Below, one piece after another: positions 32,610 through 47,594 of a stretch of DNA of 64,000 bases. The DNA is from Acidimicrobiales bacterium. Lineage in GTDB: Bacteria; Actinomycetota; Acidimicrobiia; Acidimicrobiales; Bog-793. Under the pieces are notes generated by a model. It was not told where the DNA came from. It made no database searches and saw only the letters and a list, made by a program, of their open reading frames with translations. A program made the position numbers and the translations under genes. Positions within the stretch are counted from its first letter, which is position 1, and each line of letters starts with the position of its first letter. The stretch is taken from the NCBI GenBank assembly GCA_049514105.1, contig JBEKVJ010000001.1, positions 5,954-69,953 on the forward strand, read 5' to 3'.

Positions 32610-34163
32610 TCAGAGGGTCCTCGCGTCGCGGATCATTGTCGCCAAGATAGAACGCCCACCGTGACGAAGCAGCAAGAGTCCGAGGGCGAAGCTGACGCCG
32701 CCGCCGAGCGCGACGCCCACAAGAAGTCGGCTCCAAGTGGCACCGAGTTGGAGCGCCGGGGCCGATGCAAGCGCAGCGATGGCACCGCCGACGATTATCG
32801 ATCCAAGTGCCTCCAGGACAGTCTGGCGCGCCGCTCCCGTTGAGAACTCCTCGCGTACCAGGTAGGGAAAGATGACGACGTTTGATACCACAATTGTGAC
32901 CAAAGTGGCGTAGGCGGCTCCGATCGGACCTATGACTATGGCGAAGACAACCGTAAGGGCGAGATTTGCGGCTGCTTCTGTGGCTACCAGCCACACGAAG
33001 CGCTTCTGACGACCGCGCGCTATCAGCAGAAGACTGAGTCCGTGAACGGGGACATTCGCCAACCAGACGCAACAAAACACCACGAGAACGGTTTCACCGA
33101 GATGGGACGCGCGGCCAGTAACGACTGCGATGACATCGACGCGTAGAACGATCACTGTCGCGAACATCGCGCCAGAGATAAACGCGGCTACGCGCGTCAA
33201 AAAGCGTGTAGCGCTCTCTTGGCCATCGCTGTCGCGGGTGCCGGCGAGGTGGGGAAATACCGTGTCATAGCCCGTGAAGAGCAGCGTGATCGCTTGCGAC
33301 GGCACGATCGATCCGGCGCGGTATAGGCCGACGGCGGCCGCAGTCGCGACGGCCCCAACCACTACTAGGTCGGTCGCGGAAATGACCTGTCCGGAGACCG
33401 ATAAGACCAGAAGAGGAGCAGAGAATGACGCGACTCGACGAATGTCGACCCAGCCAATCCTTCGCGGGAGAGTCCGGAACCAGCGTTCGTGCCGTCGGGT
33501 CCACCAGCCACAATAGCCTTGGCAGACGACAACACTTGCCAGCAGACCGGCGCCAAGGGCGACTAGATGTAGAGAATTTATTGTCGCGACGACGATCGCG
33601 ATCTCGACTGCCGTTCCGGCAAGACCCCCGATTGCGGGAACGTGGAACTGACGTCGTCCGGCAGGGATGCCAGCAAACGAGGAGCTGGCCAGGTTCAATG
33701 CAACCGAAAGCCCGACGAGAAACACCAATAGGGGGACGTGCCTACCTGCGATGGACCGGTACCTGCCGAAAGCGACCACCAAGGTCACGATGCACGTGGC
33801 CGCGAAAACTGCGAGGCCCCACGCGACGTAGGTCGTGTGCGCAGCCTCCACATCGTTTCGGGCGCGATGTCGCTCGTCTTCCTGGAAGGACGCGGAGTCT
33901 CGCGCTGTAGCTCTGATGACCAGGAGCCTCAGACCGAAGTCGACAGTGCCGAAGACACCAAGGACGGTCGCCACGAGAGCGTAGATGCCGTAAGTGGACG
34001 CGCCGAGGTGTCTGAAGGAGAAGGCGAGCAAGTAAAGACCACCCAACACTGATGCTCCTGCATTCAGGTACAACCACGCGGCGTTACGACCAAGGCCCGT
34101 GACCTGTAGGGCTCCGGCTTGTGAACCTTCATCCGGTCCGGAGGGCGGGGGAAGCGCAGTCAA
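32610..34163 (-). CDS. Wzx-like oligosaccharide flippase (MOP superfamily)
   Basis: 517 aa and multi-TM, with a flippase-type N-terminus ...GLGRNAAWLYLNAGASVLGG... It has a TTG start as drawn, and the start is uncertain. Confidence 0.75.
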   Translation of the reverse strand: MTALPPPSGPDEGSQAGALQVTGLGRNAAWLYLNAGASVLGGLYLLAFSFRHLGASTYGIYALVATVLGVFGTVDFGLRLLVIRATARDSASFQEDERHRARNDVEAAHTTYVAWGLAVFAATCIVTLVVAFGRYRSIAGRHVPLLVFLVGLSVALNLASSSFAGIPAGRRQFHVPAIGGLAGTAVEIAIVVATINSLHLVALGAGLLASVVVCQGYCGWWTRRHERWFRTLPRRIGWVDIRRVASFSAPLLVLSVSGQVISATDLVVVGAVATAAAVGLYRAGSIVPSQAITLLFTGYDTVFPHLAGTRDSDGQESATRFLTRVAAFISGAMFATVIVLRVDVIAVVTGRASHLGETVLVVFCCVWLANVPVHGLSLLLIARGRQKRFVWLVATEAAANLALTVVFAIVIGPIGAAYATLVTIVVSNVVIFPYLVREEFSTGAARQTVLEALGSIIVGGAIAALASAPALQLGATWSRLLVGVALGGGVSFALGLLLLRHGGRSILATMIRDARTL

Positions 34164-34167
34164 CTTA

Positions 34168-34222
34168 CGATCGGGGCTCTCGTCGTCAGCTGACGGTCCG
34201 CTGTCGACGAGAGCCCCGATCG
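34168..34222. promoter_or_regulatory. Perfect 18-bp inverted repeat (19-nt spacer) abutting the flippase start
   Basis: cgatcggggctctcgtcg (34168-34185) ... cgacgagagccccgatcg (34205-34222) are exact reverse complements. No flanking T-tract is present on either strand. Confidence 0.8.
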
Positions 34223-34835
34223 GAGTCTGCCGTTGGCAGCTGTCCCAAGAATGCCTGCATCGCCAAAGAGTGTAGGGGCTGGTCTCGAGGATGGGGCGAA
34301 CCGATCGCCGCCATTCTTACCGAAATCGTGCCTCGTCTCATTTCGGAACGTTCGTTCACTGTTCAAAGGCCTAGAGGAGAGAGCTAGGTTCACTACGACG
34401 CCAAAGAGCGGAACCAGGCAAATGACCACGAGCCATACGTCCAGCCTCTGCGCATCTGGTCTGCCAGTCGGAGTCCGGAGCCATCCTAAATGCATATAGT
34501 CTCCACGGAACGAAATCTGCAGATGAGTACACTTCCCCCGTGTGCGACTTGACGAACATCTTGGCGCGTACGGGTAGCGGCGATCAGGGGCAGGAATTCG
34601 GACCTGACTTTGTGCTGGGAATGACTTGAACTGGCGCGTTCGTATCGGCTGGTACGAGGGCAGACAGCGTGCCGCCTTGAGGCTGGTTTCAGCCGCGCGC
34701 CGGTGGTACTACGCGAGCAGCGATGGGCGTGCCGGCGATCCAAGTAATGATCCTGCACGTCCCACCAAGGCTGCGTCGCCAGGCGCTGCTGGATCGAAGC
34801 TCGCAGGTCCGCTCGGAAACAGCCGCCGCGTAGCG

Positions 34836-36575
34836 ATGTCGCTATGGGCCTCAGTTCGTCGCCGCCGATACCCGTTGGACGCCGGAGCAGACCGCGTCCG
34901 TTATGAACAGTGGCTTGTCGCGCGTGGCGACGAAGTGCTGCTGCCGGAGCGAACCCTTGAGGTCATCTCGTCGAGAGTCCGCCCGGACTCTGAAGGCCAG
35001 CCCCTGTTCAGCATTGTTGTGCCCGTTTTCCGGCCGCCGCTCTGGGGTCTGGAGAGGTGCGTCACCTCAGTGCTATCCCAGCCATTCGATGATTTCGAGT
35101 TCAAGCTCTGTGATGACTGCGGCGGAGACGGAGAGGTCCTCGCGCTGTTGCGCCGCTGTGAGGCAATTGATAGCCGGATCGAGGTCATCGTTTCTGAGCA
35201 CAACGAAGGAATTGCCAATGCAACCAACCGCGCTCTAGCTGCCTCAACGGGGCAGTACATCATATTTCTCGATCACGACGACGAGTTGGCCGGCGACGCC
35301 CTCGAAGTCATCGCTGCAGCGATAAGAGACCGGCCCGAGACAGACGTCCTGTATAGCGACTCCGACAAGATCTCAGCCGATGGCCGCCGCTTCGCTCCCG
35401 CATTCAAGCCGGCCTGGTCGCCGGATCTTTTGTGTTCAGGCATGTACTTCGGCCACGTTCTGGTCGTGCGCCGCGCTCTTGTCGAGAAGGTCGGAGGTCT
35501 ACGAAGTAGTTACGACGGCAGCCAGGATCACGATCTTGCGCTTCGCGTAACCGAGATCGCCGGATCGGTAGTGCATATCCCTCGCATTCTGTATCACTGG
35601 AGATCAGGGACCGGTTCGGCCGCGACGGATCCATTGGCGAAGCCTTGGGCGCGAGAAGCAGGCCGATCCGCGGTCGCCGAAGCCCTGCTCCGGCGCGGCG
35701 AGCAGGCAACTGTAGAGCAGGACCCGAGGTCAATCGGGCGGTACCACTGCTCTCGTCATCTGGCATCTGGAACAGTGGTCACGATCGCGCCGATCTTGCG
35801 GGCCCCGGCATCGCCAGCAGGCATCGGGCGCGTTGTGCGCGATTGGGAGGGTCGCTCCCGGGACTTGGTCGCCACTGCTGGCATGGCTGTCAACCTGGGG
35901 GATGTAATCCTTGAAGAAGGTGATTGGGCGCTTTCTTGGGCATCGAGGGCGAGCGCGGCTCTGCGGGCTGCTCGAACGGATCTGGTCGTTCTCATTGACC
36001 CGCTCTTGTTGCCGCTTTCACGCCAGTGGGCCAGAGAGCTCGTCGTGCTCGCAGATCGACCTGGCGTAGGTGCCACCGGTGGATGTGTGGTCGAGGGATC
36101 CCATATTGTCGGCGCAGGGCTAGTGGCTGGGCTAGGAGGTTTAGTCGGACCTGTCCTCGCGGGCCTTCCGGCGCTTCGTCCCGGCTATCAGGCGATGGCG
36201 ATAGTGCAGCGGGAGGTCTCTGCTCTCGGGGCTGAATGCATCCTGGTACGCCGCGACGCCGCGGCGATCTTAGAGAAGCTCCCGCTATCACTATCAGCCG
36301 AGCTGGCCGTGGCCGCGCTTTGTTTCACGCTGCGCCGCAACGGTGAACGAGTCCTCTACGAGCCGGCTGCCCGGTTCAAACTTCCCAAATTCCATCGCCA
36401 AACCCCACCCCGACAGCTCGGTCACAGCATGCAACTGAGCGAAGTCGAATGGTTTCGGAGCGAGTTCGCATCCGAGCTCGCCGAGGCCGACCCCTACTAC
36501 CACCCAGCTCTGTGCCTGGACGATCCCTATTGTCGTCTCGGGTCCGCCGGGGTCGAGCTCCCATTGTTCAGATGA
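34836..36575 (+). CDS. Two-domain glycosyltransferase family 2
   Basis: It has FSIVVPVFRPPLWGLERCVTSVLSQPFDDFEFKLCDDCG...FLDHDDE...DHDL. The start was taken at MSLWASVRRRRYP (34836). The ORF-track extension from 34626 has no GT-like sequence. Confidence 0.8.
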   Translation: MSLWASVRRRRYPLDAGADRVRYEQWLVARGDEVLLPERTLEVISSRVRPDSEGQPLFSIVVPVFRPPLWGLERCVTSVLSQPFDDFEFKLCDDCGGDGEVLALLRRCEAIDSRIEVIVSEHNEGIANATNRALAASTGQYIIFLDHDDELAGDALEVIAAAIRDRPETDVLYSDSDKISADGRRFAPAFKPAWSPDLLCSGMYFGHVLVVRRALVEKVGGLRSSYDGSQDHDLALRVTEIAGSVVHIPRILYHWRSGTGSAATDPLAKPWAREAGRSAVAEALLRRGEQATVEQDPRSIGRYHCSRHLASGTVVTIAPILRAPASPAGIGRVVRDWEGRSRDLVATAGMAVNLGDVILEEGDWALSWASRASAALRAARTDLVVLIDPLLLPLSRQWARELVVLADRPGVGATGGCVVEGSHIVGAGLVAGLGGLVGPVLAGLPALRPGYQAMAIVQREVSALGAECILVRRDAAAILEKLPLSLSAELAVAALCFTLRRNGERVLYEPAARFKLPKFHRQTPPRQLGHSMQLSEVEWFRSEFASELAEADPYYHPALCLDDPYCRLGSAGVELPLFR

Positions 36576-37546
36576 GCGCGTCGACTTCCATCTGTCTGTG
36601 CACATACAACGGTGCCGAGTATCTGTCCGAGCAGCTTGCTTCCATCTCTGCACAGACCCGGCCGCCCGATGAAGTCATCATCGGTGACGACGGGTCGAAG
36701 GACGGCACTGTCGAGGTGGTCGAGCGTTGGGCGTCGTCGGTATCTGTCGCTGTTTCAATCGAGACTCGAGCCGTTCCACTCGGCCGTGTCGCCAATCTCG
36801 AAAGCGTCCTTCGCCGCGCAAGGTCCGACATAGTGTTCATTTGCGATCAGGACGACCGATGGCGTCCCGAGAAGATGGAGCAGATGACCCGTGTTCTCGA
36901 GAGCGCCCCCGCATCGGCCGGTGCATTCTGCGATTCCGCTCTGATCGACGAAGCGGGTAATCCTCTGGCGGGATCGCTGTGGCGAACGCTGCGATTCGGA
37001 GTTGCCGAACAGGCATCCGTCGCCACTGGCGCCGGTTTCGAGGTGCTGCTGAGACGAAACGTTGTTGCTGGCCACGCGCTTGGCTTTAGGCGGGACAAAC
37101 TCGACTTGCTGCTACCCATTCCGGAAATTGCCCACGCTGATTGGTGGCTCGCGCTCGGCCTGCTCATAGACGGGGGCCTCGTGCCTTTAAGTGACGAGCT
37201 CGTGGAGTATCGGCTCCATGGCGCCAATTCCGTTGGGCTCAGGAGCCGAACCAGCCTTGCTCGCCGGATCACAGCCACTAATCCCAGAGCGCGCTCCATT
37301 ACAGACGCAGCGCTTCTCGAGGAATTCCGGCTCCGCCTCGAACGTGCCCGTCCCGGCTCGCTGAACGACCGAGACTGCGACGCCTTACAGGCCAAGATCG
37401 CTCACTCGCTGTTTAGGGCCTCGTTGTCAAGTTCTCGATTGGGTCGGATCGTGCCCGCCCTAAGAGCACTTGCCTCCGGGGACTACCGACACTGGTCGAA
37501 CGGCTGGCAGAGCGCGTTTGTCGACGTTCTAGGTCCTGCGCGATGA
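36572..37546 (+). CDS. Glycosyltransferase family 2
   Basis: There is an ATGA overlap with the upstream stop. It has MSASTSICLCTYNGAEYLSEQLASISAQTRPPDEVIIGDDGSKDGT...CDQDD. Confidence 0.85.
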   Translation: MSASTSICLCTYNGAEYLSEQLASISAQTRPPDEVIIGDDGSKDGTVEVVERWASSVSVAVSIETRAVPLGRVANLESVLRRARSDIVFICDQDDRWRPEKMEQMTRVLESAPASAGAFCDSALIDEAGNPLAGSLWRTLRFGVAEQASVATGAGFEVLLRRNVVAGHALGFRRDKLDLLLPIPEIAHADWWLALGLLIDGGLVPLSDELVEYRLHGANSVGLRSRTSLARRITATNPRARSITDAALLEEFRLRLERARPGSLNDRDCDALQAKIAHSLFRASLSSSRLGRIVPALRALASGDYRHWSNGWQSAFVDVLGPAR

Positions 37547-38439
37547 ACTCCTCGGAAGACCAGCCGTCGATGTGCGCCATTGCCGCCGTCATCGTCAACT
37601 ACAACGCGGGGGACGCTCTCAGCGAGTGTGTCGCAAGCTTGGAGCGAGAGCACGTCCGAGAGATCGTTGTCGTGGACAACGGGTCGACCGATGGTTCACT
37701 TGACTGCCTTCCTGCAAGGTTCCCAGAGGTAAGAGTGCTGCATACGGGCCGGAACCTCGGATACGGCGGCGGAGTCAACTTCGGTGCTCATGAAGTCGGG
37801 GGGGATCTGATTCTCGTTTGCAATCCCGACCTCCAGATTCAAACCGGGGCCGTGAACGCCCTGCTTAGCCGCATTGAAAGGGATCAGTCGCTGGGACTGG
37901 TCGGGCCGGCGCTGGTCGGCATCGACCGAGGCCCGCACCCGTCCGGACGAGCGTTCCCAACGGTGCGTCGCTCGAGCCTGCAAGCGGCCCTCGGCGTGTT
38001 GGCTCCCGGGAGCACGTACAGCAGGCGCTACCGAGAAGCGAACCGCGCCCGGGCCGCCACTGGCATCGTCGATTGGGTGACCGGTGCCTGTTTTCTAGTC
38101 CGACGAGAAGCCTTCGATGCCGTCGGCGGGTTTGACGACCGCTACTTCATGTACGTGGAGGAAGTGGACCTGTGCTGGCGGCTGACACAGGCCGGATGGC
38201 GCATTGGCTACGAGTCGTCGGCTCACGTGCTGCATCTTGCAGGCGTCTCGACCGCTGCCGCCCCGTTTAGGATGATCGCTGCTCACCACTGGTCGTTGTG
38301 GCGATTCGCCCGCCGAACCACGAGTGGTTCCGACCGGCTGTTGCTTCCTTTCGTGGCTGTCGGGATCGCTCTTCGCTTCTCGGTCGTGTGTCTTCGCCGA
38401 CTCGTGGCCGCGGTCGCCAAGCCCAGTCGCCGGAGGTAG
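37543..38439 (+). CDS. Glycosyltransferase family 2 (WbbL/rhamnosyltransferase-like)
   Basis: There is an ATGA overlap. It has AAVIVNYNAGDALSECVASLEREHVREIVVVDNGSTDGS...GACFLVRREAFDAVGGFDDRYFMYVEEVDLCWR. Confidence 0.85.
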   Translation: MNSSEDQPSMCAIAAVIVNYNAGDALSECVASLEREHVREIVVVDNGSTDGSLDCLPARFPEVRVLHTGRNLGYGGGVNFGAHEVGGDLILVCNPDLQIQTGAVNALLSRIERDQSLGLVGPALVGIDRGPHPSGRAFPTVRRSSLQAALGVLAPGSTYSRRYREANRARAATGIVDWVTGACFLVRREAFDAVGGFDDRYFMYVEEVDLCWRLTQAGWRIGYESSAHVLHLAGVSTAAAPFRMIAAHHWSLWRFARRTTSGSDRLLLPFVAVGIALRFSVVCLRRLVAAVAKPSRRR

Positions 38440-38458: not shown

Positions 38459-39826
38459 TTAGCGCGCCTTGTCCTCGAAGACGGTTCGCAGCGTTCGGCC
38501 GATGATCTGAAGGTCCAGGGCCAGGCTTTGGTGGCGGAGGTAGAAGAACTCGTACTGCAGCTTCTCGAGAGCGTCTAGGTCGCTAGCTCCGTAGTCATAG
38601 TTGATCTGCGCCCATCCCGTGATGCCAGGTCGTACGAGATGGCGGAGGTCGTAGAAGGGGATGGTCTTGGCGAGGAGCTCTACGTAGTGCGGTTGCTCCG
38701 GTCGCGGACCGACGATCGACAAGTCGTGACGAAGGACGTTCCACATTTGCGGCAACTCGTCGACATGAAGACGCCTGAGCATTCGCCCGACGTTGCCCAG
38801 CCGAGGATCGTGGGCAGCGGTCCAAGTCGACGAGGCGCTCCCAGGGGGCATGGTCCGGAACTTGTGAATCATGAAGATGACTCCGCTCTTGCCGACACGA
38901 GGTTGACTGTAGAAGAGGGGACCACGATTGCCGAACAGGTTTGCTGCTGCGACGAGCGGAACGGTCATGGCGAGAGCCACCATTCCGACCAGCGCGATCA
39001 CAAGGTCCAAGAAACGTTTGCTACGTGCGTAGGATGGCCGGTGAATCTCGTTGATGTCGAATAGAAGCGAAATGCGCTCGAGCTCCGAGATCGGTAGCTT
39101 GCCCAGCCAGACGTCATAGAACAGCGACAGGGTCCGGATTCGGATCCCCTTCGAATGGAGCTCGGCTGCCTGGGTGACTATCTCCTCGCGCTGTTGGGCT
39201 TCGCGATCGAGCACCAACAGATTGGCGTTGGAGGATTTCATGAGTTGTGCGAGAGGCCGAGCCTGCTCGGGCGTGGGCATCATTTCTTCGGATCGCGCCA
39301 TTGCCACGAGCTGGGCTGGGCGCTCAGTATGTTCTGTCGTGTCGCGGGCCAGGCGCTCAGCTTCTTCGCCGGCGATTATCGCCACAACCCGATCCTGGCT
39401 AGCTCGTCGGCGCTCGGTCGCGCTCGAAAGCTGGGAGACAAGCATGAAGACGGGTAAGAGGATGGCTGATGCGACGAAAACGACAAAGCGCGGGAGGAGT
39501 TGGGCGCCCGTGAAGAGCTGAAGTACCGAGATAATGACATCGGCGGCTACCAGAGCAGCAGTGGCCCTGGCGAAGCTCCGTGTAAGACGCCCACCGACGT
39601 CCGGTAGCCCGGCAGCGTAGCTAGTCGCTCCGATCAAGGCGATGAAAACCAGGATCCACCCGAAACGTGGTTCTTCAGTTAGAGAATAAACATGCCGAGC
39701 TACATAGTGTGAATGAACAGCTTCGGTCGCGATGACGACGGCTAGCGTCAAGACGGGAAGGAGCCACTTGACCGGACGACTCATCACAGACCATTCAACC
39801 TCAGTTGAGGTCGTCAACGGTGCCAA
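38459..39826 (-). CDS. Polyprenyl-phosphate glycosyl-1-phosphate transferase (WbaP/EPS-type initiating sugar transferase)
   Basis: 455 aa with N-terminal TM helices and a central regulatory-type domain. The C-terminal bacterial sugar-transferase core is KRFLDLVIALVG...PLFYSQPRVGKSGVIFMIHKFRTM...DELPQMWNVLRHDLSIVGPRPE. Confidence 0.9.
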   Translation of the reverse strand: MAPLTTSTEVEWSVMSRPVKWLLPVLTLAVVIATEAVHSHYVARHVYSLTEEPRFGWILVFIALIGATSYAAGLPDVGGRLTRSFARATAALVAADVIISVLQLFTGAQLLPRFVVFVASAILLPVFMLVSQLSSATERRRASQDRVVAIIAGEEAERLARDTTEHTERPAQLVAMARSEEMMPTPEQARPLAQLMKSSNANLLVLDREAQQREEIVTQAAELHSKGIRIRTLSLFYDVWLGKLPISELERISLLFDINEIHRPSYARSKRFLDLVIALVGMVALAMTVPLVAAANLFGNRGPLFYSQPRVGKSGVIFMIHKFRTMPPGSASSTWTAAHDPRLGNVGRMLRRLHVDELPQMWNVLRHDLSIVGPRPEQPHYVELLAKTIPFYDLRHLVRPGITGWAQINYDYGASDLDALEKLQYEFFYLRHQSLALDLQIIGRTLRTVFEDKAR

Positions 39827-39863
39827 TCAGCCTGCTGGTGAACCCGCGCCCGAAACGCTGCCT

Positions 39864-41696
39864 TTGCACAATGCCTCGTTTGGAGTCCGGTCCAGCACTG
39901 TTACCGGCCTTGGTGCGTTCGCCGCCATCGGCGCGGCCGTACTTTGCCTGGCGGTCTCGCCGAAGGTGAACTCGGGTACCTTCACGCCGAAATTCGCGGT
40001 ACTCCTTATCTTTGCCGCTGTCGGTGTCGTTCCTCTGGTACGTCTCGTGAAGACGGCCTCGCCCCTGCGGTGGCCGGCGACGGCCGCGGTGGCCTTTCTC
40101 GCCGTGGCGCTTGTTTCCGCGCTCGTATCACCCTCGCCCAACATCGGAATCTTTGGGCTTTACCTGTGGGGTACGGGCTGGTTGTTCTGGCTCGGGGTAG
40201 CCGGCGCGTTCGCGATTGGAGCGTCCCTTGGACAGCATGATCGGCAGTGGCTTTTTGCCGGGCTGGCCTTTGGTGCACTCGCCAGCGCAGCCGTGGCGGT
40301 CTTTCAGATCGTCGCGAACCCCCAGATTGGGGGCCTAACTCTATACGACGGCACACAGGCAGACGCAGCCCTTGGGAATCCGATTCACCTCGAGGCTCTT
40401 CTGCTTGGTGGACTGGCGCTCATACTGGGAAGGGCATGTCGCGCTCCACTGCGTTGGGCGGCAGCGGTCTTGCTCCTCTCGGTCGGGCTCGAGTTCACCT
40501 TTGAGCGTTTTGCCATCGTTGTCCTCGCCGGTCTGATTCTCTACGCCTTGTATTCCTACGGCGCCCGTCGCGGAGGCGTCTTTGCGCTCCTGGTCTGCGG
40601 AGGTTATGCGATCGCCTACCTCAGCGGAGGAGCTGGCCTCAGCTCGCGTGTGACATCGGGCACGACTGAGACGACATTTGGGGCGAGGATACGGATTTGG
40701 TGGGCGGCTGGCCACTACGTGCTGCACCACCCTCTGCTCGGAGCCGGCCCAGGTCAGACCCGAACCGCACTTGACTCGACCGCCACGCTTTCCTTCTTCC
40801 AGCATGTCCTGGTTGGTCGCGTCCTCGCGGACAGTCATGACGTTTTCGTCGAGGTTGCGGTGACGACCGGCCTGCTCGGTTTGGCTTGTTTCCTTGTCTG
40901 GTTGTTCGGCCTGGTCAGGAAGTCTGCGCGATGTGGCTTCCTTGGGTTCGCGGCTGCGCTGATCGCGGTGAACCTGGTGGAACCGCTCAACATAGCCATC
41001 CTCCCGCTCGCGTTCCTGGCCCTCGGAGCTGCCACGGCACTACGCCGAGACGTCCCACATGTACGAGCCGCTCCAGCTCCCCAACTCGAGCCCCAACCTG
41101 TGAGTTCATCCTCGGGTGCCGCGGCGACGGAGCGCTCCACGGCTCCCTACGCAGCCATCACGACCTTCGCAGTCGTGGCGATAGCGCTGTTGGTGGGAGT
41201 GACCATGGTGCTCGGGGACGCTGACATGGCTCGGGGCACGGACTATCGCCAAGGCCAGGTATTCAGTCTCTCAACCACCAAGAATGCCAGCACCCTCTTG
41301 CCCTACTGGCCCGATTCGGCGCTCGAGGTTGCCCAGGTCGAAGCTTACGAAAGCCTGACACCGGCCTCTGTCGATCTGAGGATTCTGGCAGAGTCACGGA
41401 ACTGGACCGCTGTTGCCGCAAGCCGGGACTCGCGGAACCCCCACATCTGGGTTCTGTTGGGCAGTGCCGATCTCGAGCTCAAGCAATACCAGCAGGCCCG
41501 AGTCGCTTACCTCCACGCCCTGTCGTGCGATCGGTGGTACACCCAAGCATTTGAGGGACTTGGGGCCGTGGCCGAGGCTCAACGGGACTGGACCCAGGCC
41601 GTCCATTGGTACCGGACCGCTCTGGTGACAGCTGAACTCGACCCTCTGATATCGGCTTCCATCAAAGGTTCTCTGCTTCGAGTGGAGCAACATTGA
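39864..41696 (+). CDS. Wzy_C/O-antigen-ligase-family polytopic membrane protein with C-terminal TPR-like domain
   Basis: It has multiple TM segments. The signature RIRIWWAAGHYVLHHPLLGAGPGQ...SHDVFVEVAVTTGLLGL is typical of the WaaL/Wzy/PglL family. The C-terminus has TPR-like repeats (LGSADLELKQYQQARVAYLHALS...AFEGLGAVAEAQRDWTQAVHWYRTAL). The ORF-track start (39732) overlaps the divergent transferase gene, so the start is probably at or after 39827, for example the TTG at 39864. Confidence 0.75.
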   Translation: MHNASFGVRSSTVTGLGAFAAIGAAVLCLAVSPKVNSGTFTPKFAVLLIFAAVGVVPLVRLVKTASPLRWPATAAVAFLAVALVSALVSPSPNIGIFGLYLWGTGWLFWLGVAGAFAIGASLGQHDRQWLFAGLAFGALASAAVAVFQIVANPQIGGLTLYDGTQADAALGNPIHLEALLLGGLALILGRACRAPLRWAAAVLLLSVGLEFTFERFAIVVLAGLILYALYSYGARRGGVFALLVCGGYAIAYLSGGAGLSSRVTSGTTETTFGARIRIWWAAGHYVLHHPLLGAGPGQTRTALDSTATLSFFQHVLVGRVLADSHDVFVEVAVTTGLLGLACFLVWLFGLVRKSARCGFLGFAAALIAVNLVEPLNIAILPLAFLALGAATALRRDVPHVRAAPAPQLEPQPVSSSSGAAATERSTAPYAAITTFAVVAIALLVGVTMVLGDADMARGTDYRQGQVFSLSTTKNASTLLPYWPDSALEVAQVEAYESLTPASVDLRILAESRNWTAVAASRDSRNPHIWVLLGSADLELKQYQQARVAYLHALSCDRWYTQAFEGLGAVAEAQRDWTQAVHWYRTALVTAELDPLISASIKGSLLRVEQH

Positions 41697-41881
41697 TGGT
41701 GTGAAGTAGGCCAACGATGGGCTCGCGCTGCGGAGCGCCGGAGGAGCAGCGAGAGCAGAGTTTGATGCCAGCACCTCGACTAGGCCTAAGACTCCGGAAG
41801 GCACAATCCGCTAAAGTTCCTGACGGTGCTGTCGATACTTTACTCGGTAGTACTTTCATTGACCCGAGGGAGGAAAGCTTC

Positions 41882-42466
41882 ATGAGAAATGTTGAGAGGC
41901 TGCGTGCACGGCGCCTCCAGATAGAGGAAGCAGGCGAGCAAGGCTTTACACTTATCGAACTGCTCGTCGTCTTGCTCATCATCGGCATCCTGTTAGCGAT
42001 CGCGATCCCGACGTTCTTGTCGGTGACCAAGACCGCGAACAACACCGCCGCCCAGTCGAACCTGCAGACGGCGCTCACGGGTGCCAAGACCTACTTCGAG
42101 GCGGCGAATCAGACCTACGTTGGCATCAACGGTGGCCCGCAGAACGCCGCGGTTTCGACCATAACCGCCATTGACACCGGCCTCACCTATGTCACCGGCA
42201 CGACAGCGTCGACAGCGTCGAACACTATCTCGGTCTACGCTGTGCCTTCGAGCACCGGAAGCGACATTGTGTTGGCCGCCTACTCAGCCGGCACGAAGGA
42301 GTGTTGGGCCATCGAGGACAACACAGCAGCTGGATACGATGTATTCGGCGGGACCGGCGTCGGCACAACCTACGCCGTGTGGAGGACCGGACAGTCCTCG
42401 ACGACTTGCAAGGGCAGTCAAACTGCTCCAACTCAAACCAGCACTACGGGTTTCCCAGCCGCATAA
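41882..42466 (+). CDS. pilA: Type IV pilin (prepilin with class III signal peptide)
   Basis: The ATG is preceded by GGGAGG (41866-41871). It has a 21-aa leader MRNVERLRARRLQIEEAGEQG, then FTLIELLVVLLIIGILLAIAIPTF (G-1/F+1/E+5). A C-terminal Cys pair (KECW...TTCKG) is followed by a Ser/Thr-rich tail. Confidence 0.9.
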   Translation: MRNVERLRARRLQIEEAGEQGFTLIELLVVLLIIGILLAIAIPTFLSVTKTANNTAAQSNLQTALTGAKTYFEAANQTYVGINGGPQNAAVSTITAIDTGLTYVTGTTASTASNTISVYAVPSSTGSDIVLAAYSAGTKECWAIEDNTAAGYDVFGGTGVGTTYAVWRTGQSSTTCKGSQTAPTQTSTTGFPAA

Positions 42467-42531
42467 CGAACTAGAGCATCCCTGCCTCGATTGCCTCTGG
42501 GACGGCGGGTCGAGCAGGAGATGAGGTTATG

Positions 42532-42569
42532 AGAACCCCCCGTGACCGTTGGCCACGGGGGGTTCTTTT
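42532..42569 (+). terminator. Rho-independent terminator of the pilin gene
   Basis: agaaccccccgtg (42532-42544) pairs perfectly with cacggggggttct (42554-42566). The loop is 9 nt and is followed by ttt(g). It lies 66 nt after the pilin stop. Confidence 0.8.
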
Positions 42570-43788: not shown

Positions 43789-44400
43789 TCAGGTTGTCCC
43801 CGTTGGTGCTACATAGGTCGTGTAGGCCGTTGCAGTCAGGGCCATGCTGTATGGCTGTCCGTCACCAGCGGCCAGGATGTTGGCGGCGGTGCTCGTTGGC
43901 GCGAGGCTCACAGAGTCGATTGTCATGAGCCGCTTCATTTTGTAAAAGCGGTTCAGGAAGCTAAACACATCACTGTGGGTCCCGGAGAGGGCGAAAGTGA
44001 CGCTGATGTTCGACAAGCCGGGCGTACCGCTGGGCGTGGGGCTGTCTGCTGGTGTGACCGACGAGAGATTGCAACCGGTCTGATTTGCAAGGGTGTTGAG
44101 CGAGTCGACGATCCCAGGGGGATCCTCTGTCGGAGGTATCGCAGTCGTCACCTTCTTTAGGAAGGGGAGCTCTTTCAGGACGAGCTTCCTCTCCGCCTTC
44201 AAGGACGTCAGCTCCGCGTTCAACTGGCTCACGGTCGTCTGATCAGCTGCGATTTGCGAGTTGACCGTGGCGAGTTTGTTGCTCTCGGGTGTCATCCAGG
44301 CGAACCACCAGATGATGAGAAGAAGGATCACACTTCCGGTGATTATCAGCACGACCTTGGATTTCAGAAGATCGAGATTTATAGCTCTAAGTCCGCTCAT
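43789..44400 (-). CDS. pilO: PilO-like type IV pilus assembly protein
   Basis: 203 aa with an N-terminal TM (VVLIITGSVILLLIIWWFAW), a coiled-coil (NSQIAADQTTVSQLNAELTSLKAERK) and an alpha/beta C-terminal domain. It lies immediately after the PilM-N gene with a 1-nt overlap. Confidence 0.7.
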   Translation of the reverse strand: MSGLRAINLDLLKSKVVLIITGSVILLLIIWWFAWMTPESNKLATVNSQIAADQTTVSQLNAELTSLKAERKLVLKELPFLKKVTTAIPPTEDPPGIVDSLNTLANQTGCNLSSVTPADSPTPSGTPGLSNISVTFALSGTHSDVFSFLNRFYKMKRLMTIDSVSLAPTSTAANILAAGDGQPYSMALTATAYTTYVAPTGTT

Positions 44401-46094
44401 TATGGCACCTTGAATTCGTTGGCCCTGATCGACGTGACTTCGCCAGTTACTCCGACGGTGGCGGAGAATGTGACGCTTGGTGACGTTACCTCTGTAATCC
44501 CACTGAAGCCGTTGACGGTGAGCTTCCCCGAACCGTCAACGGAGTAGTACCAGCTCCGGAAGTAGGGGTATCCAGCCGACGACGCGAGAGACAGGTTTAG
44601 AGTCGCGATCTGGGTCTCGGAGGGTGGAAGTACTACCGCTGCCGGGGCGCCGGCGGTTGTGGCGGGAATCGTACGAGGAACGATCGCCGCCGAGAAGGTC
44701 GAGATGGTGCCACCACTCGGCGTTGAGTGCCTCAGGGCAGCTATCACGCCGGGCCAGTAGACCTCGTCGTTCACGATCGGGTTGCTGACTGCCGACAAGT
44801 CGACGATCTCGGATCGCTCCTGTTGCACCTTGTTGTACTTCGGTATCTGAATCCTGACCGCCGTGATCTGGTTCTGGAGGCTCGCGACCTGATTCTCCGC
44901 GTCGTGCACCTTGAGGAAGCGGAGGGCACCGAGTGCGACCATGACCAGAACAATGAACACGGCGACGAGCATGAGAGTGCGCTCGAGTTGCTTGCGCTTG
45001 CGCCCCAGGATCACCTCAGGTGGGAGAAGATCGAGCTCCTTGACGTCCTTCGATCCCTGGATCGCAAGACCAACCACAACGGCCACCGAGGCGTCCAAGC
45101 GGCGGATTTCCTCGGTCGGCAGATGGAGTCGCGAGCAGTCGATCTGGTTCAGGACGCTGCCGATGAACACCGGCAGGCGAAGCTGCTGTTGCAGTTGCTC
45201 AGCGAAGCCGTAGAGACGGGACCCGCCACCGGTGATTACGACGCGGCGAACGGGGCTACGACCCGTCAATGTCGCGTAATAGTCGATCGAGCTGCGGAGC
45301 TCGCCAATCAATGACATGGCGGCGTCGCGGGCGGCTCCGATGGCGGTATGAATGTGCGGAGCTGCCCCATCCAGGTTCTGCTTCAACGATTCGGCGTCTG
45401 CAAGGGGCAGGTCAAGTACGCCGGCGATGGCGGCGGTGATCGTGTCGCCACCTTCAGCGATGGTTCTCACGAAGTGCGGGACTCCGTTTTCGTGCACAGC
45501 AACCGTCGTGAGGTCGGCACCGACCGAGACAATTGCCTCAGGGCCATCTATCGCCGTCTCAGTGCTGAAAAGGGCCCGGATTATCGCGGAGGACGTCGGC
45601 TCAATGCTGACCGGGACGAGTCCGGCCGCGGTCGCAACCTCGACCAGGGGATCGACCAAGTCGCGATGGGCCGCTGCCACAAGAACGCGCCTTTCGGGCA
45701 TTCCGTTGGGGCCGACGGTCTCCTCGAGCGGTCGCGCGGAGATGAGAGCCTTGTCGATCGCGAACGGGATGACGTCGAGGGCCTGAAGGCGCACTGCAGA
45801 ATCGATTTCCGCGTCTGGCAGAAGCGGCATCTCGAGCTCTCGGGTTATCGCGCGAAGACCTGCGATTCCCAGATGCACATCCCCGGCGGTGAACCCGCCT
45901 TCTTTCATGCAGCGTTCCAGCGCGACGCGGACGACGCCTTGCTCGAGGATGACTCCATCGATCACGGCCTGCGGAGGAAGAGCCACCTGGCCAAGCCGGA
46001 TCAGCTCTGGGCGCCCATGCCCAGTCACGACTTCGGCCATGCGCACCGCGCTGCTGCTGATTTCGACACTCACGCGCCGCGTAACCATCACCAT
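44400..46094 (-). CDS. pilM: PilM-PilN fusion protein (actin-like ATPase domain + TM/coiled-coil PilN-like domain)
   Basis: 564 aa. Residues 1 to about 350 are PilM-like (...VVITGGGSRLYGFAEQLQQQL...). These are followed by LLPPEVILGRKRKQLERTLMLVAVFIVLVMVALGAL, a coiled coil and a periplasm-type domain as in PilN. The start may be 2 codons downstream. Confidence 0.85.
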   Translation of the reverse strand: MVMVTRRVSVEISSSAVRMAEVVTGHGRPELIRLGQVALPPQAVIDGVILEQGVVRVALERCMKEGGFTAGDVHLGIAGLRAITRELEMPLLPDAEIDSAVRLQALDVIPFAIDKALISARPLEETVGPNGMPERRVLVAAAHRDLVDPLVEVATAAGLVPVSIEPTSSAIIRALFSTETAIDGPEAIVSVGADLTTVAVHENGVPHFVRTIAEGGDTITAAIAGVLDLPLADAESLKQNLDGAAPHIHTAIGAARDAAMSLIGELRSSIDYYATLTGRSPVRRVVITGGGSRLYGFAEQLQQQLRLPVFIGSVLNQIDCSRLHLPTEEIRRLDASVAVVVGLAIQGSKDVKELDLLPPEVILGRKRKQLERTLMLVAVFIVLVMVALGALRFLKVHDAENQVASLQNQITAVRIQIPKYNKVQQERSEIVDLSAVSNPIVNDEVYWPGVIAALRHSTPSGGTISTFSAAIVPRTIPATTAGAPAAVVLPPSETQIATLNLSLASSAGYPYFRSWYYSVDGSGKLTVNGFSGITEVTSPSVTFSATVGVTGEVTSIRANEFKVP

Positions 46095-46326
46095 GCTCCT
46101 GACGCTGAGAATGAACTCGCAGTGTTATCAATATCGAGAATCATGCTAGCTGTTCGCTTTCCGAACGGTTGGGACCCAAATCGACCCCACACTTCGCGTA
46201 AGGCCCTCTACTAACACACTCAACATGCACACAGTTTCCATCGGCTTTCTGGCGACATTTCTTGAGTCGATGAACATCGGCAGTTCCACAGGGCCGTCTT
46301 GAGATTGGCTCCGCATGCAAGCGAGC

Positions 46327-47562
46327 TCAAGCGTTCGGCGACTGGAGAAGCTTGACGTAGTCGAACATCGGCAGGTACAGGCTGATGACGATGGCACCGA
46401 TGCACGCACCCATGAATAGGATGATCAACGGCTCGAGAATCGACGTCAGGCTGTCGACTGTCGCGTTCACCTCGTTGTCGTAGAACGTAGCCACCTTGTC
46501 AAGCATCTCGTCGAGCGCACCCGACTCCTCACCGGTCTCAACCATCTGGGTCAGCATGATGGGCATGACCGGATACTGAGCGAGGATCGTCGAGAGGTTC
46601 TTTCCCTCTCGAACGCCGTCTTGGGCCCCGATCAGCGCATCCGCGACGACCTGGTTACCGGCGTTCACGGCAACTATGTCGAGTGCCTCTATGACCGGCA
46701 CGCCTGCTGAAAGCAAGGACGAGAACGTAGTGCAGAAACGGGCGAGCGCCACCTTGTGCGAGAGCGGACCGAACACAGGTGGCCGCAGCTTGAAGGCGTC
46801 CCACTTTCTCCTGCCGCTCGGCGTCGCGATCCAACGGCGCATCAGGAACACAACCAGCACGATCGTCGCTATGACCGCTAGAAGCCAGACGCTAGCCACC
46901 ACATTCGAGATCGCGATGACGATCCGGGTCGGGAGCGGCAGCTGCCCGTTCAAGGTGGTGAACAGCCTCTTGAAGATCGGGACGATGAAGATCATCATCG
47001 CTGTCACGATCACGATGACGGCACAGAAAACGATCGTCGGATAAGCCATGGCGGAGCGGACCTTCTGGCGGAGCTCGACCTGCTTTTCAAGGGTTGACGA
47101 GAGCTTGAGGAGCACCGAGTCCAGCTGGCCCCCGACCTCTCCGGCTCGAACCATCGCTATGTACAGCGGCGGGAAAATCTTGGGGAGCTTCTCGAGCGAA
47201 GTAGACAATGACGAGCCCTGCTCGACATCTTGGCGCACCTGGAGCATTGCTTCTCGCAGGGGCTTGGACTCGATCTGATCGGCGAGGACGCCGAGAGCCC
47301 TCACGAGCGTCAGCCCTGCCGCAACCATGGTTGCCAGCTGACGGCTCATGAGCGCGACGTCTTTGAGGGCTACGCGGTCGGTGACCCCGGGTATCGTGAT
47401 CTCTCGTCTCAAGTTGAGAGAGACGGGTTTGATCTCGACGGGCGCGTATCCCATGTCCCGCAGGCGTGCCGCGACCAAGGGGACGCTGTCGGCTTCTAGC
47501 TGGCCCTTGACCAGCCTGCCGTCCGCGTCGCGGACCTTGTAGTCATAGGTAGTCGTTGGCAT
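46327..47562 (-). CDS. pilC: Type IV pilus platform protein PilC (GspF family)
   Basis: 411 aa with duplicated GspF-domain architecture (...REAMLQVRQDVEQGSSLSTSLEK... / ...LIGAQDGVREGKNLSTILAQ...) and three TM regions. Confidence 0.9.
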   Translation of the reverse strand: MPTTTYDYKVRDADGRLVKGQLEADSVPLVAARLRDMGYAPVEIKPVSLNLRREITIPGVTDRVALKDVALMSRQLATMVAAGLTLVRALGVLADQIESKPLREAMLQVRQDVEQGSSLSTSLEKLPKIFPPLYIAMVRAGEVGGQLDSVLLKLSSTLEKQVELRQKVRSAMAYPTIVFCAVIVIVTAMMIFIVPIFKRLFTTLNGQLPLPTRIVIAISNVVASVWLLAVIATIVLVVFLMRRWIATPSGRRKWDAFKLRPPVFGPLSHKVALARFCTTFSSLLSAGVPVIEALDIVAVNAGNQVVADALIGAQDGVREGKNLSTILAQYPVMPIMLTQMVETGEESGALDEMLDKVATFYDNEVNATVDSLTSILEPLIILFMGACIGAIVISLYLPMFDYVKLLQSPNA

Positions 47563-47594
47563 GGATCAGTCTCCCAAATCCTGCGACATGATGA

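Follow-up and report, generated by a model that had tools for sequence, protein, structure and literature searches.

The Wzy_C enzymes TfpO, TfpM, and PglS are encoded beside their pilin (PMC9829042, PMC12645811). In WaaL of Escherichia coli, an Arg/Arg/His set is reported to be essential, and it is conserved in PglL (PMC3643930); WsfB and PglL have been reported to carry a C-terminal TPR motif (review, PMC2943079). We compared these systems with a locus in a 64,000-nucleotide stretch of an Acidimicrobiales genome, hereafter the window, in which a Wzy_C protein with a C-terminal TPR domain is encoded directly upstream of a type IV pilin. This enzyme is probably a protein O-oligosaccharyltransferase (OTase) dedicated to, or at least including, the neighboring pilin.

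The enzyme resembles TfpO (PilO; Pseudomonas aeruginosa 1244) and TfpM (Moraxellaceae) in its Wzy_C domain and in the position of its gene immediately beside that of the cognate type IV pilin. The resemblance may extend to an acceptor in the C-terminal segment after the disulfide loop and a glycan from an Und-PP-linked surface-glycan pathway (PMC9829042). However, TfpO and TfpM are proteins of 420–470 aa with no TPR domain, encoded downstream of the pilin, whereas the enzyme here is larger (610–654 aa), has a further TM helix as well as a TPR domain, and is encoded upstream. TfpO and TfpM also act on the C-terminal residue itself (Ser or Thr), with extra C-terminal residues blocking TfpO, and their hosts are unlike the monoderm actinobacterium considered here. 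By description, PglL (Neisseria) and PglS (Acinetobacter baylyi) share the Wzy_C core and the Arg/Arg/His set, have 520–620 aa and a larger C-terminal external region, and modify internal Ser residues in low-complexity Ala/Ser/Pro-rich segments resembling the pilin tail here. PglL is nevertheless a general OTase, the gene of which is unlinked to its substrates, unlike that of the enzyme here.

WsfB (Paenibacillus alvei) and WsaB (Geobacillus stearothermophilus) are predicted S-layer O-oligosaccharyltransferases of Gram-positive bacteria, and the likeness lies in shared domains: Wzy_C plus a C-terminal TPR motif in a monoderm, although the TPR of WsaB is on a separate neighboring protein (PMC2943079). 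Their genes are also part of a glycan cluster that depends on Und-P and encodes an initiating enzyme of the WbaP type, but their target is an S-layer protein rather than a pilin, and their hosts are Firmicutes, not Actinomycetota. WaaL (Cupriavidus metallidurans, 7TPG; E. coli) matches the enzyme's predicted topology in its 12 TM helices and in the large external TM9–TM10 loop, and its catalytic-type Arg/His region can be aligned, but it has neither a 13th TM helix nor a TPR domain. WaaL joins O-antigen to lipid A-core, an acceptor absent from a monoderm actinobacterium. TfpW (P. aeruginosa group IV), which is required for pilin glycosylation, is likewise encoded beside pilA and is a polytopic glycosyltransferase of the membrane, its C-terminus forming a TPR domain in the periplasm (bioRxiv 10.1101/2020.04.19.049825). 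However, TfpW belongs with the ArnT/Emb-like GT-C enzymes, uses polyprenyl-P-arabinofuranose, and is not a Wzy_C protein; the resemblance (membrane core, TPR, and pilin adjacency) is therefore one of analogy, not of shared family.

Enzyme gene and predicted architecture

The enzyme gene and its parts are as follows.

39864..41696 (+): candidate pilin O-oligosaccharyltransferase, a Wzy_C/O-antigen-ligase-family membrane protein with a C-terminal TPR domain (ORF, Pfam Wzy_C and TPR_2, AF2 model)
40461..40895 (+): Wzy_C domain, aa 200–344 (Pfam PF04932, E 9e-13)
40635..40841 (+): large extracytoplasmic loop, aa 258–326 (topology from hydropathy and AF2 helices)
41157..41213 (+): 13th TM helix, aa 432–450 (Kyte–Doolittle peak 2.58; AF2 helix 421–459)
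41241..41693 (+): predicted extracytoplasmic TPR domain, aa ~460–610, ~4 helical hairpins (profile and Foldseek matches)

Both stretches by which an earlier note on this DNA had recognized the protein, RIRIWWAAGHYVLHHPLLGAGPGQ and SHDVFVEVAVTTGLLGL, are present in the long ORF 39732..41696 (+). The true start codon is uncertain among three candidates, which give proteins of 610 aa (TTG at 39864), 642 aa (39768), and 654 aa (39732). The NCBI gene model has 642 aa, corresponding to a TTG at 39768, with which the gene would run into the 5′ end of the divergently oriented WbaP gene. The protein is 100% identical to a database entry named [quoted passage not shown]. The polytopic Wzy_C-type protein proposed in that note was confirmed by Pfam (E about 1e-12; 48.5 bits versus a cutoff of 31.7), and Wzy_C was present in 22 of 22 family members scanned. 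Neither PglL_A (PF15864) nor Wzy_C_2 (PF11846), the sole proposed sequence signatures of OTases versus ligases, was found with Pfam in any of these 22 members, even at E ≤ 1, which weighs against the OTase reading.

The enzyme consists of a 12-TM Wzy_C/WaaL-like core, a cytoplasmic linker, the 13th TM helix, and an external TPR domain (AlphaFold model, pLDDT 82.8, pTM 0.84). For the membrane part, the WaaL ligase 7TPG was the only solved structure matched (E 2e-11). The large external loop is predicted to lie between TM9 and TM10, and its family-invariant residues are R262, R275, H288, G293-x-GPG297, D323, and H325 (alignments A1 and A2). The invariant R215, R262, R275, and H325 are at or within this loop, and the segment around R275 and H325 is aligned to RLkIW ... 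HaHN..vE in WaaL 7TPG. A disordered linker (aa 394–430; AF2 pLDDT < 50) precedes the 13th TM helix, which is predicted to carry the TPR domain to the outside. The C-terminal TPR-like region had also been noted earlier, and although TPR_2 alone is sub-threshold in the enzyme (25.9 bits versus 27 in Pfam), the domain is borne out by other comparisons. The family profile matches consensus TPR (CTPR) proteins and the OGT TPR domain in the PDB (per-repeat E ~1e-8), the C-terminal 150 residues of the AF2 model can be superposed on TPR proteins, natural as well as designed (Foldseek E 5e-5, TM 0.76–0.85), and TPR Pfam families were found in most of the 22 family members. With four TM helices between the external catalytic loop and the TPR domain, the prediction places both on the same, extracytoplasmic side of the membrane.

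Some O-antigen polymerases belong to Pfam Wzy_C as well, and the enzyme might instead be the Wzy-type repeat-unit polymerase of the adjacent Wzx-dependent cluster, its adjacency to the pilin being a by-product of neighboring clusters. We regard this as unlikely: its closest solved relative is a ligase (7TPG), and Wzy proteins are not known to have an external TPR domain.

Pilin gene and its C-terminal tail

The pilin gene and its flanking signals are as follows.

41810..41881 (+): conserved region, the 72 bp before the pilin ATG (blastn)
41882..42466 (+): type IV prepilin, 20-aa leader and 174-aa mature protein (N_methyl; NCBIfam pilin N-terminal models)
42302..42409 (+): disulfide-loop region, Cys121–Cys156 of the mature pilin (Cys count in 30 linked pilins)
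42410..42463 (+): C-terminal tail KGSQTAPTQTSTTGFPAA, proposed glycan acceptor and docking region (alignment of 30 linked pilins)
42531..42567 (+): intrinsic terminator hairpin 3′ of the pilin gene (RNA fold −33.9 kcal/mol, z = −3.2)

With its start at ATG 41882, the pilin ORF lies 185 bp after the enzyme gene on the same strand; it contains an N_methyl motif (Pfam E 1.3e-7), and the cleavage site is EQG|FTLIE. When the six reading frames were scanned for the motif, no second prepilin was found in the window, in agreement with the description of this gene as the only pilin gene there. The 72-bp region is conserved at 74–83% identity at the same position in L001–L010, L030, and L034 (blastn), and the conserved block extends through the leader codons to 41941; the 72-bp region probably contains a separate promoter for the pilin, together with the 5′ UTR and RBS. 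No terminator-like site was found between the enzyme and pilin genes. The terminator downstream of the pilin has a 14-bp G+C-rich stem followed by UUUUGU, and its sequence is kept in L001–L004.

The mature pilin has exactly two Cys, at positions 121 and 156, and all 30 linked pilins also have exactly two, spaced 34–42 residues apart. A Cys loop followed by a Ser/Thr/Ala/Pro-rich tail had been described for this pilin, and both features held, but the string quoted as 15 aa long has 16 aa, and the tail after the second Cys, KGSQTAPTQTSTTGFPAA, has 18 aa, seven of them Ser/Thr. In the 30 linked pilins, the tails are 17–26 aa long, variable in sequence, and contain 3–10 Ser/Thr, and a terminal [ST]xGFPx(G/A) motif is present in nearly all (P172 invariant, F171 conserved in at least 90%; alignment A3). 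The last residue is Ala in the window's pilin, Gly or Ala in most linked pilins, and Ser in four, so any acceptor most likely lies inside the tail. Actinobacteria also O-mannosylate Ser/Thr-rich segments with PMT-type enzymes, and a Ser/Thr-rich tail alone therefore does not point to the enzyme.

Glycan genes and gene neighborhood in relatives

Upstream of the enzyme gene lie the following.

38459..39826 (−): WbaP/EpsB-like polyprenyl-phosphate glycosyl-1-phosphate transferase, initiating enzyme (Bac_transf E 4e-54; TIGR03025 E 6e-85)
28199..38439 (no strand given): glycan assembly cluster B (Pfam and NCBIfam)

The WbaP gene, with a likely start at ATG 39784, is divergent from the enzyme gene. 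Cluster B comprises, in order, a GT2 (28199–29218), a PglD-like acetyltransferase, a DegT aminotransferase, a methyltransferase, a second GT2, a Wzx-like flippase (32610–34163), and three further GT2; Pfam and NCBIfam thus recovered the WbaP-type, Wzx-like, five GT2, DegT, PglD-like, and methyltransferase genes of the Und-P-linked oligosaccharide assembly set that the earlier note had listed. They also detected no polytopic polymerase candidate in cluster B besides the enzyme, as had been claimed. This gap suits a Wzy polymerase, and the same combination of PGT, glycosyltransferases, and flippase with no other polymerase candidate recurs at loci L035 and L038. On the other side, the ORFs scanned in the window included no Wzz/PCP chain-length regulator, no tyrosine kinase, and no LCP ligase.

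The synteny set consisted of 34 evaluable relatives (35–80% identity), all of them Acidimicrobiales/Actinomycetota MAGs; every relative from the genome scan was an uncultured MAG. A major pilin was encoded within 2 kb of the enzyme gene in 25 of the 34 evaluable loci, down to 35% identity, and directly downstream on the same strand in 23. WbaP was adjacent and divergent in 23 of 36 loci (WbaP identity 52–85%), as might also be expected of a Wzy polymerase. In the window's own clade, the enzyme gene is always immediately upstream of the pilin and is flanked by both WbaP and pilin with equally tight linkage, and the discrimination between an OTase and a Wzy polymerase therefore rests on more distant relatives. 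Synteny across relatives had been named beforehand as a test, and it favors linkage to the pilin: five of the pilin-linked loci (L023, L026, L027, L029, and L037) lack WbaP in the flanks examined, and L020 is the only evaluable locus with WbaP but no pilin, an arrangement that a Wzy polymerase would explain. In L026, L027, and L029, the enzyme gene adjoins PilD, which argues against a polymerase. Of the five, L027 was covered by the Pfam flank scan; its enzyme gene is preceded by PilD and by a pilin-like ORF of 575 aa and followed by the major pilin, and the 10 largest flanking ORFs, which were those scanned, included no sugar gene within 10 kb. Four of five representatives of remote family members adjoin PilD, pilin, or PilMNO genes.

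The conservation of the enzyme also differs from that of the glycan genes. The gene content of cluster B is poorly conserved across related loci, and the WbaP–enzyme–pilin core is kept while the upstream glycan genes are replaced (methyltransferases, a UDP-glucose dehydrogenase, and an epimerase in L033; a region full of IS elements in L034; dTDP-sugar genes and a GT4 in L037). Between loci whose glycan genes differ almost entirely, the enzyme is 60–67% identical, whereas Wzy polymerases are typically repeat-unit-specific and highly divergent. The neighborhoods of relatives thus favor pilin glycosylation over the polymerase null with which the module had been paired.

In the neighbor-joining tree, all clades are pilin-linked except one derived subclade, and the basal split (L029 plus L024/L026/L027) is pilin-linked under midpoint rooting. 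The exception is a monophyletic eight-locus subclade in which a GT2 and the enzyme lie beside gpsA; no pilin was found within ~3–10 kb downstream or in the upstream flank examined, and the enzymes retain the TPR domain and catalytic residues. This retention would suit a general O-oligosaccharyltransferase or ligase acting mainly on other envelope proteins or a cell-wall polymer, with the pilin as at most one substrate among many, in the manner of Neisseria PglL or the second Acinetobacter OTase. One MAG also carries two paralogues, L020 adjoining WbaP and L026 adjoining PilD and pilin, recalling the pairs of pilin-specific and general OTases described in Acinetobacter in work cited by PMC12645811. 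Against such a general role, which we consider quite unlikely, stands the invariable position of the own-clade enzyme gene; tight enzyme–substrate gene linkage is a hallmark of dedicated, not general, OTases (PMC12645811). A point against the pilin OTase reading itself comes from L039, where no such enzyme was found in the 2.5 kb upstream of a GFP-tailed pilin.

Downstream of the pilin lies the pilus machinery.

43789..54079 (no strand given): type IV pilus machinery (Pfam)

It comprises PilO, a PilM–N fusion, PilC, a T2SSE/MshEN ATPase, PilB, PilD (52173–52946, +), and a PilT-sized ATPase (52952–54079), with two T2SSE ATPases besides the PilT-sized one. The glycan and pilus clusters are contiguous, and the pilin N-terminus gives weak matches, well short of the cutoffs, to the pseudopilin models HpsB (E 3e-4) and HpsC (E 9e-3), as would suit a polysaccharide secretion device like cyanobacterial Hps, in which the enzyme polymerizes or hands over the exported polysaccharide and the "pilin" is a pseudopilin. 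This is very improbable, because those matches do not extend beyond the generic N-terminal helix, the two-Cys loop is that of a major pilin, the machinery includes a PilT-sized ATPase along with a complete PilBCDMNO set, and the adjacency is specific to the pilin gene even in L035, where the pilus machinery genes lie elsewhere.

Proposed role in pilin glycosylation

The domain architecture, conserved catalytic-type residues, predicted topology, conserved neighborhood, and pilin tail features are what the analysis shows, and a pilin O-oligosaccharyltransferase would connect them as follows. Glycan synthesis would begin on undecaprenyl phosphate with the conserved WbaP-like enzyme and continue with the glycosyltransferases and sugar-modifying enzymes of cluster B, which vary between strains; the Wzx-like flippase would then turn the glycan to the external face of the membrane. 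The WaaL-like 12-TM core, which bears the Arg/Arg/His loop on its external side, would transfer the oligosaccharide en bloc to Ser/Thr of the tail after the disulfide loop while the N-terminal helix still anchors the pilin in the membrane. The TPR domain, tethered by the 13th TM helix, may dock the pilin, possibly via the C-terminal GFP motif; recognition of the protein substrate, a role suggested in the earlier note, is plausible for this domain, judging from its predicted position and from the GFP motif shared by the pilins. We infer the transfer reaction, the acceptor site, and the TPR–GFP docking from these features. The enzyme plausibly represents a new class of pilin-linked O-oligosaccharyltransferase, and, if so, a familiar mechanism would operate in an unstudied lineage, the uncultured soil actinobacteria.

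Gene content of the window

The gene singled out in the earlier note encodes a Wzy_C/O-antigen-ligase-family protein with a C-terminal TPR domain (hereafter the enzyme; its residues are counted from TTG 39864). The features that bear on its function are as follows.

ORF ending at 41696, + strand: enzyme; possible starts at 39732 (ATG), 39768 (TTG, the 642-aa NCBI model) and 39864 (TTG, the start chosen in the earlier note)
38459-39826, - strand: WbaP, a Bac_transf/WbaP-like polyprenyl-phosphate glycosyl-phosphate transferase, divergent from the enzyme gene
28199..38439: cluster B, with five GT2 genes, a PglD-like acetyltransferase, DegT, a methyltransferase and a Wzx-like flippase
41882-42466, + strand: prepilin gene (N_methyl E 1.3e-7; cleavage between EQG and FTLIELLVV; Cys121 and Cys156)
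43.8-54.1 kb: pilus machinery, with PilO, a PilM-N fusion, PilC, two large T2SSE ATPases, PilD and a PilT-sized ATPase
52173-52946: PilD (prepilin peptidase)

The earlier note was right in all substantive respects: both motifs that it quoted are present in the ORF ending at 41696, Pfam and NCBIfam recovered the cluster B genes that it listed, and its sole pilin neighbour is the prepilin gene, on the same strand 185 bp downstream of the enzyme. The window is part of a metagenome-assembled Acidimicrobiales genome, and an NCBI entry on a 120.5-kb contig, [quoted passage not shown], is 100% identical to the enzyme. If the TTG start at 39768 used by NCBI is right, the 5' end of the enzyme gene overlaps that of the divergent WbaP gene (window 39768-39826), and the TGRLITDHS motif conserved at the N-termini of the homologues may be a mere echo of the opposite strand, which encodes the conserved N-terminus of WbaP (MSRPVKW).

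Cluster B is bordered on the left by three conserved actinobacterial genes (26131-28063; an MSMEG_4193-family phosphomutase, TIGR03847 and the SCO1664 family). The glycan clusters of the related loci L035 and L038 are flanked by this neighbourhood too (DUF3090 and others), and cluster B is therefore a variable glycan island at a fixed chromosomal site. Its first GT2 gene (28199-29218) was considered as a possible GtrB/DPM1-like polyprenyl-phosphate sugar synthase, which would imply an Und-P-monosaccharide donor; NCBIfam gave generic GT2 matches only, and this identity was dropped. A second, separate glycan cluster (cluster A, 329-17654) contains GT4 and GT2 genes, a PIG-L deacetylase, a methyltransferase, DegT, a GFO/IDH/MocA oxidoreductase, two GH26-like proteins (4153-5355 and 16065-17654) and its own Wzx-like flippase (8313-9827). 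Its 761-aa DUF2206/PTPS-related polytopic membrane protein (10054-12339) may be the cluster A polymerase, and no initiating transferase was seen in cluster A.

Architecture of the enzyme and its family

The enzyme matches Wzy_C (PF04932) with 48.5-48.7 bits against a gathering cutoff of 31.7 (E 1e-12), and the Pfam match extends to 22 of 22 family members, with a best E of 1e-22. When the profile of A1, an alignment of 22 homologues with 42-80% identity, was searched against solved structures, the sole membrane protein matched was the O-antigen ligase WaaL (7TPG; E 1e-12, or 2e-11 for the membrane part alone). The match spans the region containing the invariant R275 and H325, which aligns with the RLkIW and HaHN region of 7TPG. 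R215, R262, R275 and H325 are invariant both in A1 and in a second enzyme alignment (A2), and R275 and H325 lie 50 residues apart, as in WaaL and PglL. An Arg/Arg/His set in or beside the large external loop is required in E. coli WaaL (R215, R288, H338) and conserved in PglL (R224, R298, H349) (PMC3643930); judged by spacing, R215, R275 and H325 of the enzyme correspond to this set.

Hydropathy and AF2 helices give a layout of 12 core transmembrane helices with a loop between TM9 and TM10 (258-326), a disordered linker (394-430), TM13 (432-450) and then the TPR region. This is the topology of the WaaL superfamily (~12 TM, large TM9-TM10 loop), with sidedness assigned from helix parity. The C-terminal TPR-like region described in the earlier note fell below threshold when the enzyme alone was compared with Pfam TPR_2, but the family profile matches consensus TPR proteins and the OGT TPR domain, and the C-terminus of the AlphaFold model (pLDDT 82.8, pTM 0.84) superposes on TPR structures. 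Because profile and model agree, the last 150 residues are a genuine TPR domain. Since four helices separate it from the external catalytic loop, this domain is predicted to lie outside the membrane, on the side on which the globular domain and tail of a membrane-anchored pilin would be expected.

An exhaustive HMM search of 1.84 billion cluster representatives (50% identity clusters) returned 603 with E <= 1e-30. The Wzy_C core is matched by all but one of the best 150, the majority of which have both domains at full length.

The pilin and its tail

The window pilin has the features of a type IVa-like major pilin, namely G(-1), F(+1), E(+5), a hydrophobic N-terminal helix and a C-terminal Cys pair, and PilD is present. 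Its Cys loop and Ser/Thr-rich tail were also recognized correctly in the earlier note: Cys121 and Cys156 are followed by the tail KGSQTAPTQTSTTGFPAA, which ends in ...TTGFPAA. Across 30 pilins linked to an enzyme gene (alignment A3), the N-terminal half is almost invariant and there are exactly two Cys, 34-42 residues apart. The tail after the second Cys varies in sequence and length (17-26 residues), but in every case Ser, Thr, Ala, Gly and Pro are abundant, with 3-10 Ser/Thr; nearly all of these tails share the conserved ending [ST]xGFPx(G/A). The last residue is Gly or Ala in 26 pilins and Ser in only four, so that a glycosylation site, if the pilin is glycosylated, would most likely lie inside the tail. 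Short C-terminal peptides are common ligands of TPR domains, and the conserved GFP end is therefore a reasonable candidate docking motif for the TPR domain of the enzyme.

The pilins beside remote relatives of the enzyme (L119 3577-4065, L121 5538-6266 and L125 7760-8284) also have a tail after the last Cys, ending in Trp (...ALPTW, ...SKTGW and ...EPNGW, respectively) and not in GFPxG; what the two groups have in common may be an aromatic motif at the C-terminus. Tandem arrays of two or three major-pilin genes occur downstream of the enzyme in L005/L033 (12540-14700), L023, L024 and L037, and their members differ chiefly in the tail, besides a few positions on the surface, pointing to either variation of the pilin or the co-assembly of several pilins. 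The neighbourhood of the enzyme in L024 (2277-2996 and 5605-7254), L026, L027 and L029 also codes for large minor-pilin-like proteins (225-246 aa and 517-550 aa). The smaller ones end in poly-Thr tracts (e.g., ...DTTTTTTSATTTTACPDAGAIT) and could be further glycan acceptors. No minor pilin was detectable in the window.

A strong terminator hairpin lies after the pilin gene. No regulatory RNA was revealed near the pilin when 41.5-44.0 kb was compared with Rfam, and a sigma-70 scan near it found no promoter-like site. The 1.2 kb from the terminator to pilO (42600-43788) is without a gene and contains, especially at 43221-43393, a degenerate remnant that resembles an ISL3-family transposase gene (blastn 71% over 180 bp); in L008/L034 this gene is found intact at the corresponding place. 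The pilin-pilO spacing among the loci ranges from ~0.2 to 4.8 kb (L030, ~1.4 kb; L001, 4.4 kb).

Co-occurrence of the enzyme with pilin and glycan genes

The earlier note had proposed asking whether the enzyme gene accompanies the pilin gene or the glycan cluster in related genomes. When the GTDB species were scanned, each represented by one genome, 32 loci were obtained, every one of them in an Acidimicrobiales/Actinomycetota MAG; the samples behind these MAGs include SPRUCE peat and Danish soil. Protein look-ups added three further contexts; window proteins were mapped onto each locus by tblastn and prepilins were found by motif. Together with the window there were 36 unique loci, 34 of which had enough downstream sequence to be evaluated. 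A major pilin lay within 2 kb of the enzyme in 25 of these 34, directly downstream on the same strand in 23, and WbaP was adjacent and divergent in 23 of 36. The discriminating loci, which have only one of the two partners, favour the pilin over the glycan cluster: five are linked to a pilin with WbaP absent from the flanks (L023, L026, L027, L029 and L037), versus one linked to WbaP without a pilin (L020). Moreover, the enzyme gene adjoins PilD in L026, L027 and L029. The enzyme of L027 has PilD and a 575-aa pilin-like ORF on its upstream side and the major pilin downstream, and the ten largest flanking ORFs scanned within 10 kb contain no sugar-related Pfam domains. Four of the five remote representatives looked up were next to PilD, prepilin or PilMNO genes (L119, L121, L122/L123 and L125; not L124).

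The eight loci with neither pilin nor WbaP (L012-L015, L019, L021, L022 and L031; L036 is the same locus as L012) have an enzyme of ~43% identity that keeps the TPR domain and the catalytic residues. In a neighbour-joining tree they form one monophyletic subclade that lies inside pilin-linked clades and has L023/L037, likewise linked to a pilin, as its sister. In this subclade the enzyme always follows an orthologue of the first GT2 of cluster B (28199-29218; 59-63% identity), and at the one annotated locus, L012, this GT2-enzyme pair lies in a housekeeping neighbourhood beside gpsA.

These data, together with the tail composition and the topology, suggest that the enzyme is probably a pilin, or pilin-inclusive, O-oligosaccharyltransferase. 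This reading is weakened by the subclade that lacks a pilin neighbour, by the linkage of the enzyme to WbaP and pilin alike within the window's own clade, and by the fact that all of its relatives are uncultured. A broader ligase or a general oligosaccharyltransferase seems quite unlikely, and polysaccharide export driven by the pilus very improbable.

L020 and L026 are two enzyme paralogues in a single MAG (CRr3G3H3I__bin_42). The L020 paralogue lies beside WbaP, with a Pro-Glu repeat protein downstream in place of a pilin, and the L026 paralogue lies between PilD and a pilin; the pair recalls, by analogy, species with one pilin-specific and one general oligosaccharyltransferase. A metagenome scan from the pilin side yielded two true full-length relatives among 80 loci, the patterns used (GFTLIELLV and VLLIIGILL) being generic for type IV pilins; the scan thus carries no statistical weight. 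One, L040, repeats the order WbaP-enzyme-pilin. L039 has a full-length pilin relative (2548-3141) with two Cys and the tail ...GPQTGGFPSS among Ig-like repeat proteins, and no Wzy_C gene was found in the 2.5 kb available upstream.

A conserved core amid variable glycan genes

Within the window's own clade, the enzymes are 60-67% identical (13 loci), except for the truncated L011 (75%), and the WbaP proteins are 75-85% identical. The 10 kb upstream of WbaP has little in common with cluster B, and several loci share WbaP alone. L030, which keeps three GT2 genes, is the only one of the 13 loci to share most of the glycosyltransferases of the window. The glycan region instead contains methyltransferases, a UDP-glucose dehydrogenase and an epimerase in L033, and dTDP-sugar genes and a GT4 in L037, and the transposase-riddled L034 has kept the enzyme and pilin, with WbaP in fragments.

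This pattern bears on the alternative that the enzyme is simply a Wzy polymerase. A polymerase specific for one repeat unit is not expected, from O-antigen loci, to stay conserved amid varying glycan genes, and the enzyme sequence does not co-vary with the glycosyltransferase set. A Wzy polymerase also has a chain-length regulator encoded in its cluster (Wzz/PCP, or in monoderms a CpsC/D-type kinase pair), but the Pfam-scanned ORFs of the window, all in its first 54 kb, contain no Wzz, PCP, tyrosine-kinase or LCP domain. Although L020, with WbaP and no pilin, is in its favour, we regard the polymerase reading as unlikely. Retention of the core while the glycan genes vary is the pattern that would be expected of a ligase or oligosaccharyltransferase reading only the reducing end set by the initiating transferase. 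A constant initiating transferase-enzyme-pilin core beside variable glycosyltransferase genes may thus serve as a rule for telling oligosaccharyltransferase-like from polymerase-like Wzy_C genes.

Comparison with known O-oligosaccharyltransferases

Four classes of Wzy_C O-oligosaccharyltransferase have been described, PglL, PglS, TfpO and TfpM, and the TfpO, TfpM and PglS genes adjoin those of their pilin substrates (PMC9829042, PMC12645811). PglL and PglS are marked by PglL_A (PF15864) and Wzy_C_2 (PF11846) flanking Wzy_C (PMC3643930, PMC12645811), whereas neither domain was matched in any of 22 enzyme-family members at E <= 1. TfpO and TfpM are proteins of 420-470 aa without an extra C-terminal domain (PMC9829042, Table 2), whereas the enzyme has 610-654 aa, with TM13 and a TPR domain of ~150 aa. 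It shares the gene adjacency of TfpO and TfpM, with a gap of 185 bp in the window, but the order, enzyme then pilin, is the reverse of that of tfpO and tfpM. The acceptor of both is the very last Ser or Thr of the pilin (PMC9829042), whereas the window pilin ends in Ala and 26 of 30 linked pilins in Gly or Ala. Because the PglL/PglS signature is absent and neither the size nor the likely acceptor position agrees with TfpO/TfpM, the enzyme is placed, on published class descriptions and Pfam signatures, as a Wzy_C/WaaL superfamily member outside all four classes. In its candidate function, it works most like a pilin-dedicated O-oligosaccharyltransferase.

There is precedent for its architecture. 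According to a review, the Gram-positive S-layer oligosaccharyltransferase WsfB and PglL have a C-terminal TPR motif, and a separate TPR protein is encoded beside WsaB (PMC2943079). TfpW, an unrelated GT-C enzyme, likewise joins a periplasmic TPR domain to a membrane core, and its gene lies next to pilA. We found no paper on pilin glycosylation in Acidimicrobiia.

It is conceivable, though doubtful, that the family constitutes a fifth class of bacterial O-oligosaccharyltransferase. Such a class would have a WaaL-like core, TM13 and an external TPR domain docking a C-terminal aromatic motif (GFP, or Trp in the remote relatives), and would decorate a variable Ser/Thr tail with strain-variable glycans built from one conserved WbaP-type starter; with ~600 clusters (50% identity, E <= 1e-30), it would have a wide distribution among the Acidimicrobiia of soil and peat. 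To our knowledge, pilin-linked O-oligosaccharyltransferases (TfpO, PglS and TfpM) are so far known from Proteobacteria only. The fifth class, if real, would give Actinomycetota their first en bloc system of pilin glycosylation and would supply a new tail "sequon" for glycoengineering. With each new class of pilin-linked oligosaccharyltransferase, the making of conjugate vaccines has gained another acceptor sequon and another glycan tolerance, and one from monoderm Actinomycetota, combining a fused TPR domain with a short tail motif that can be transferred, would enlarge this toolkit. It would also mean that abundant, uncultured Acidimicrobiia of soil and peat carry strain-variable glycans on their type IV pili, with a bearing on phage and predator evasion, adhesion and surface properties in soil and peat communities.
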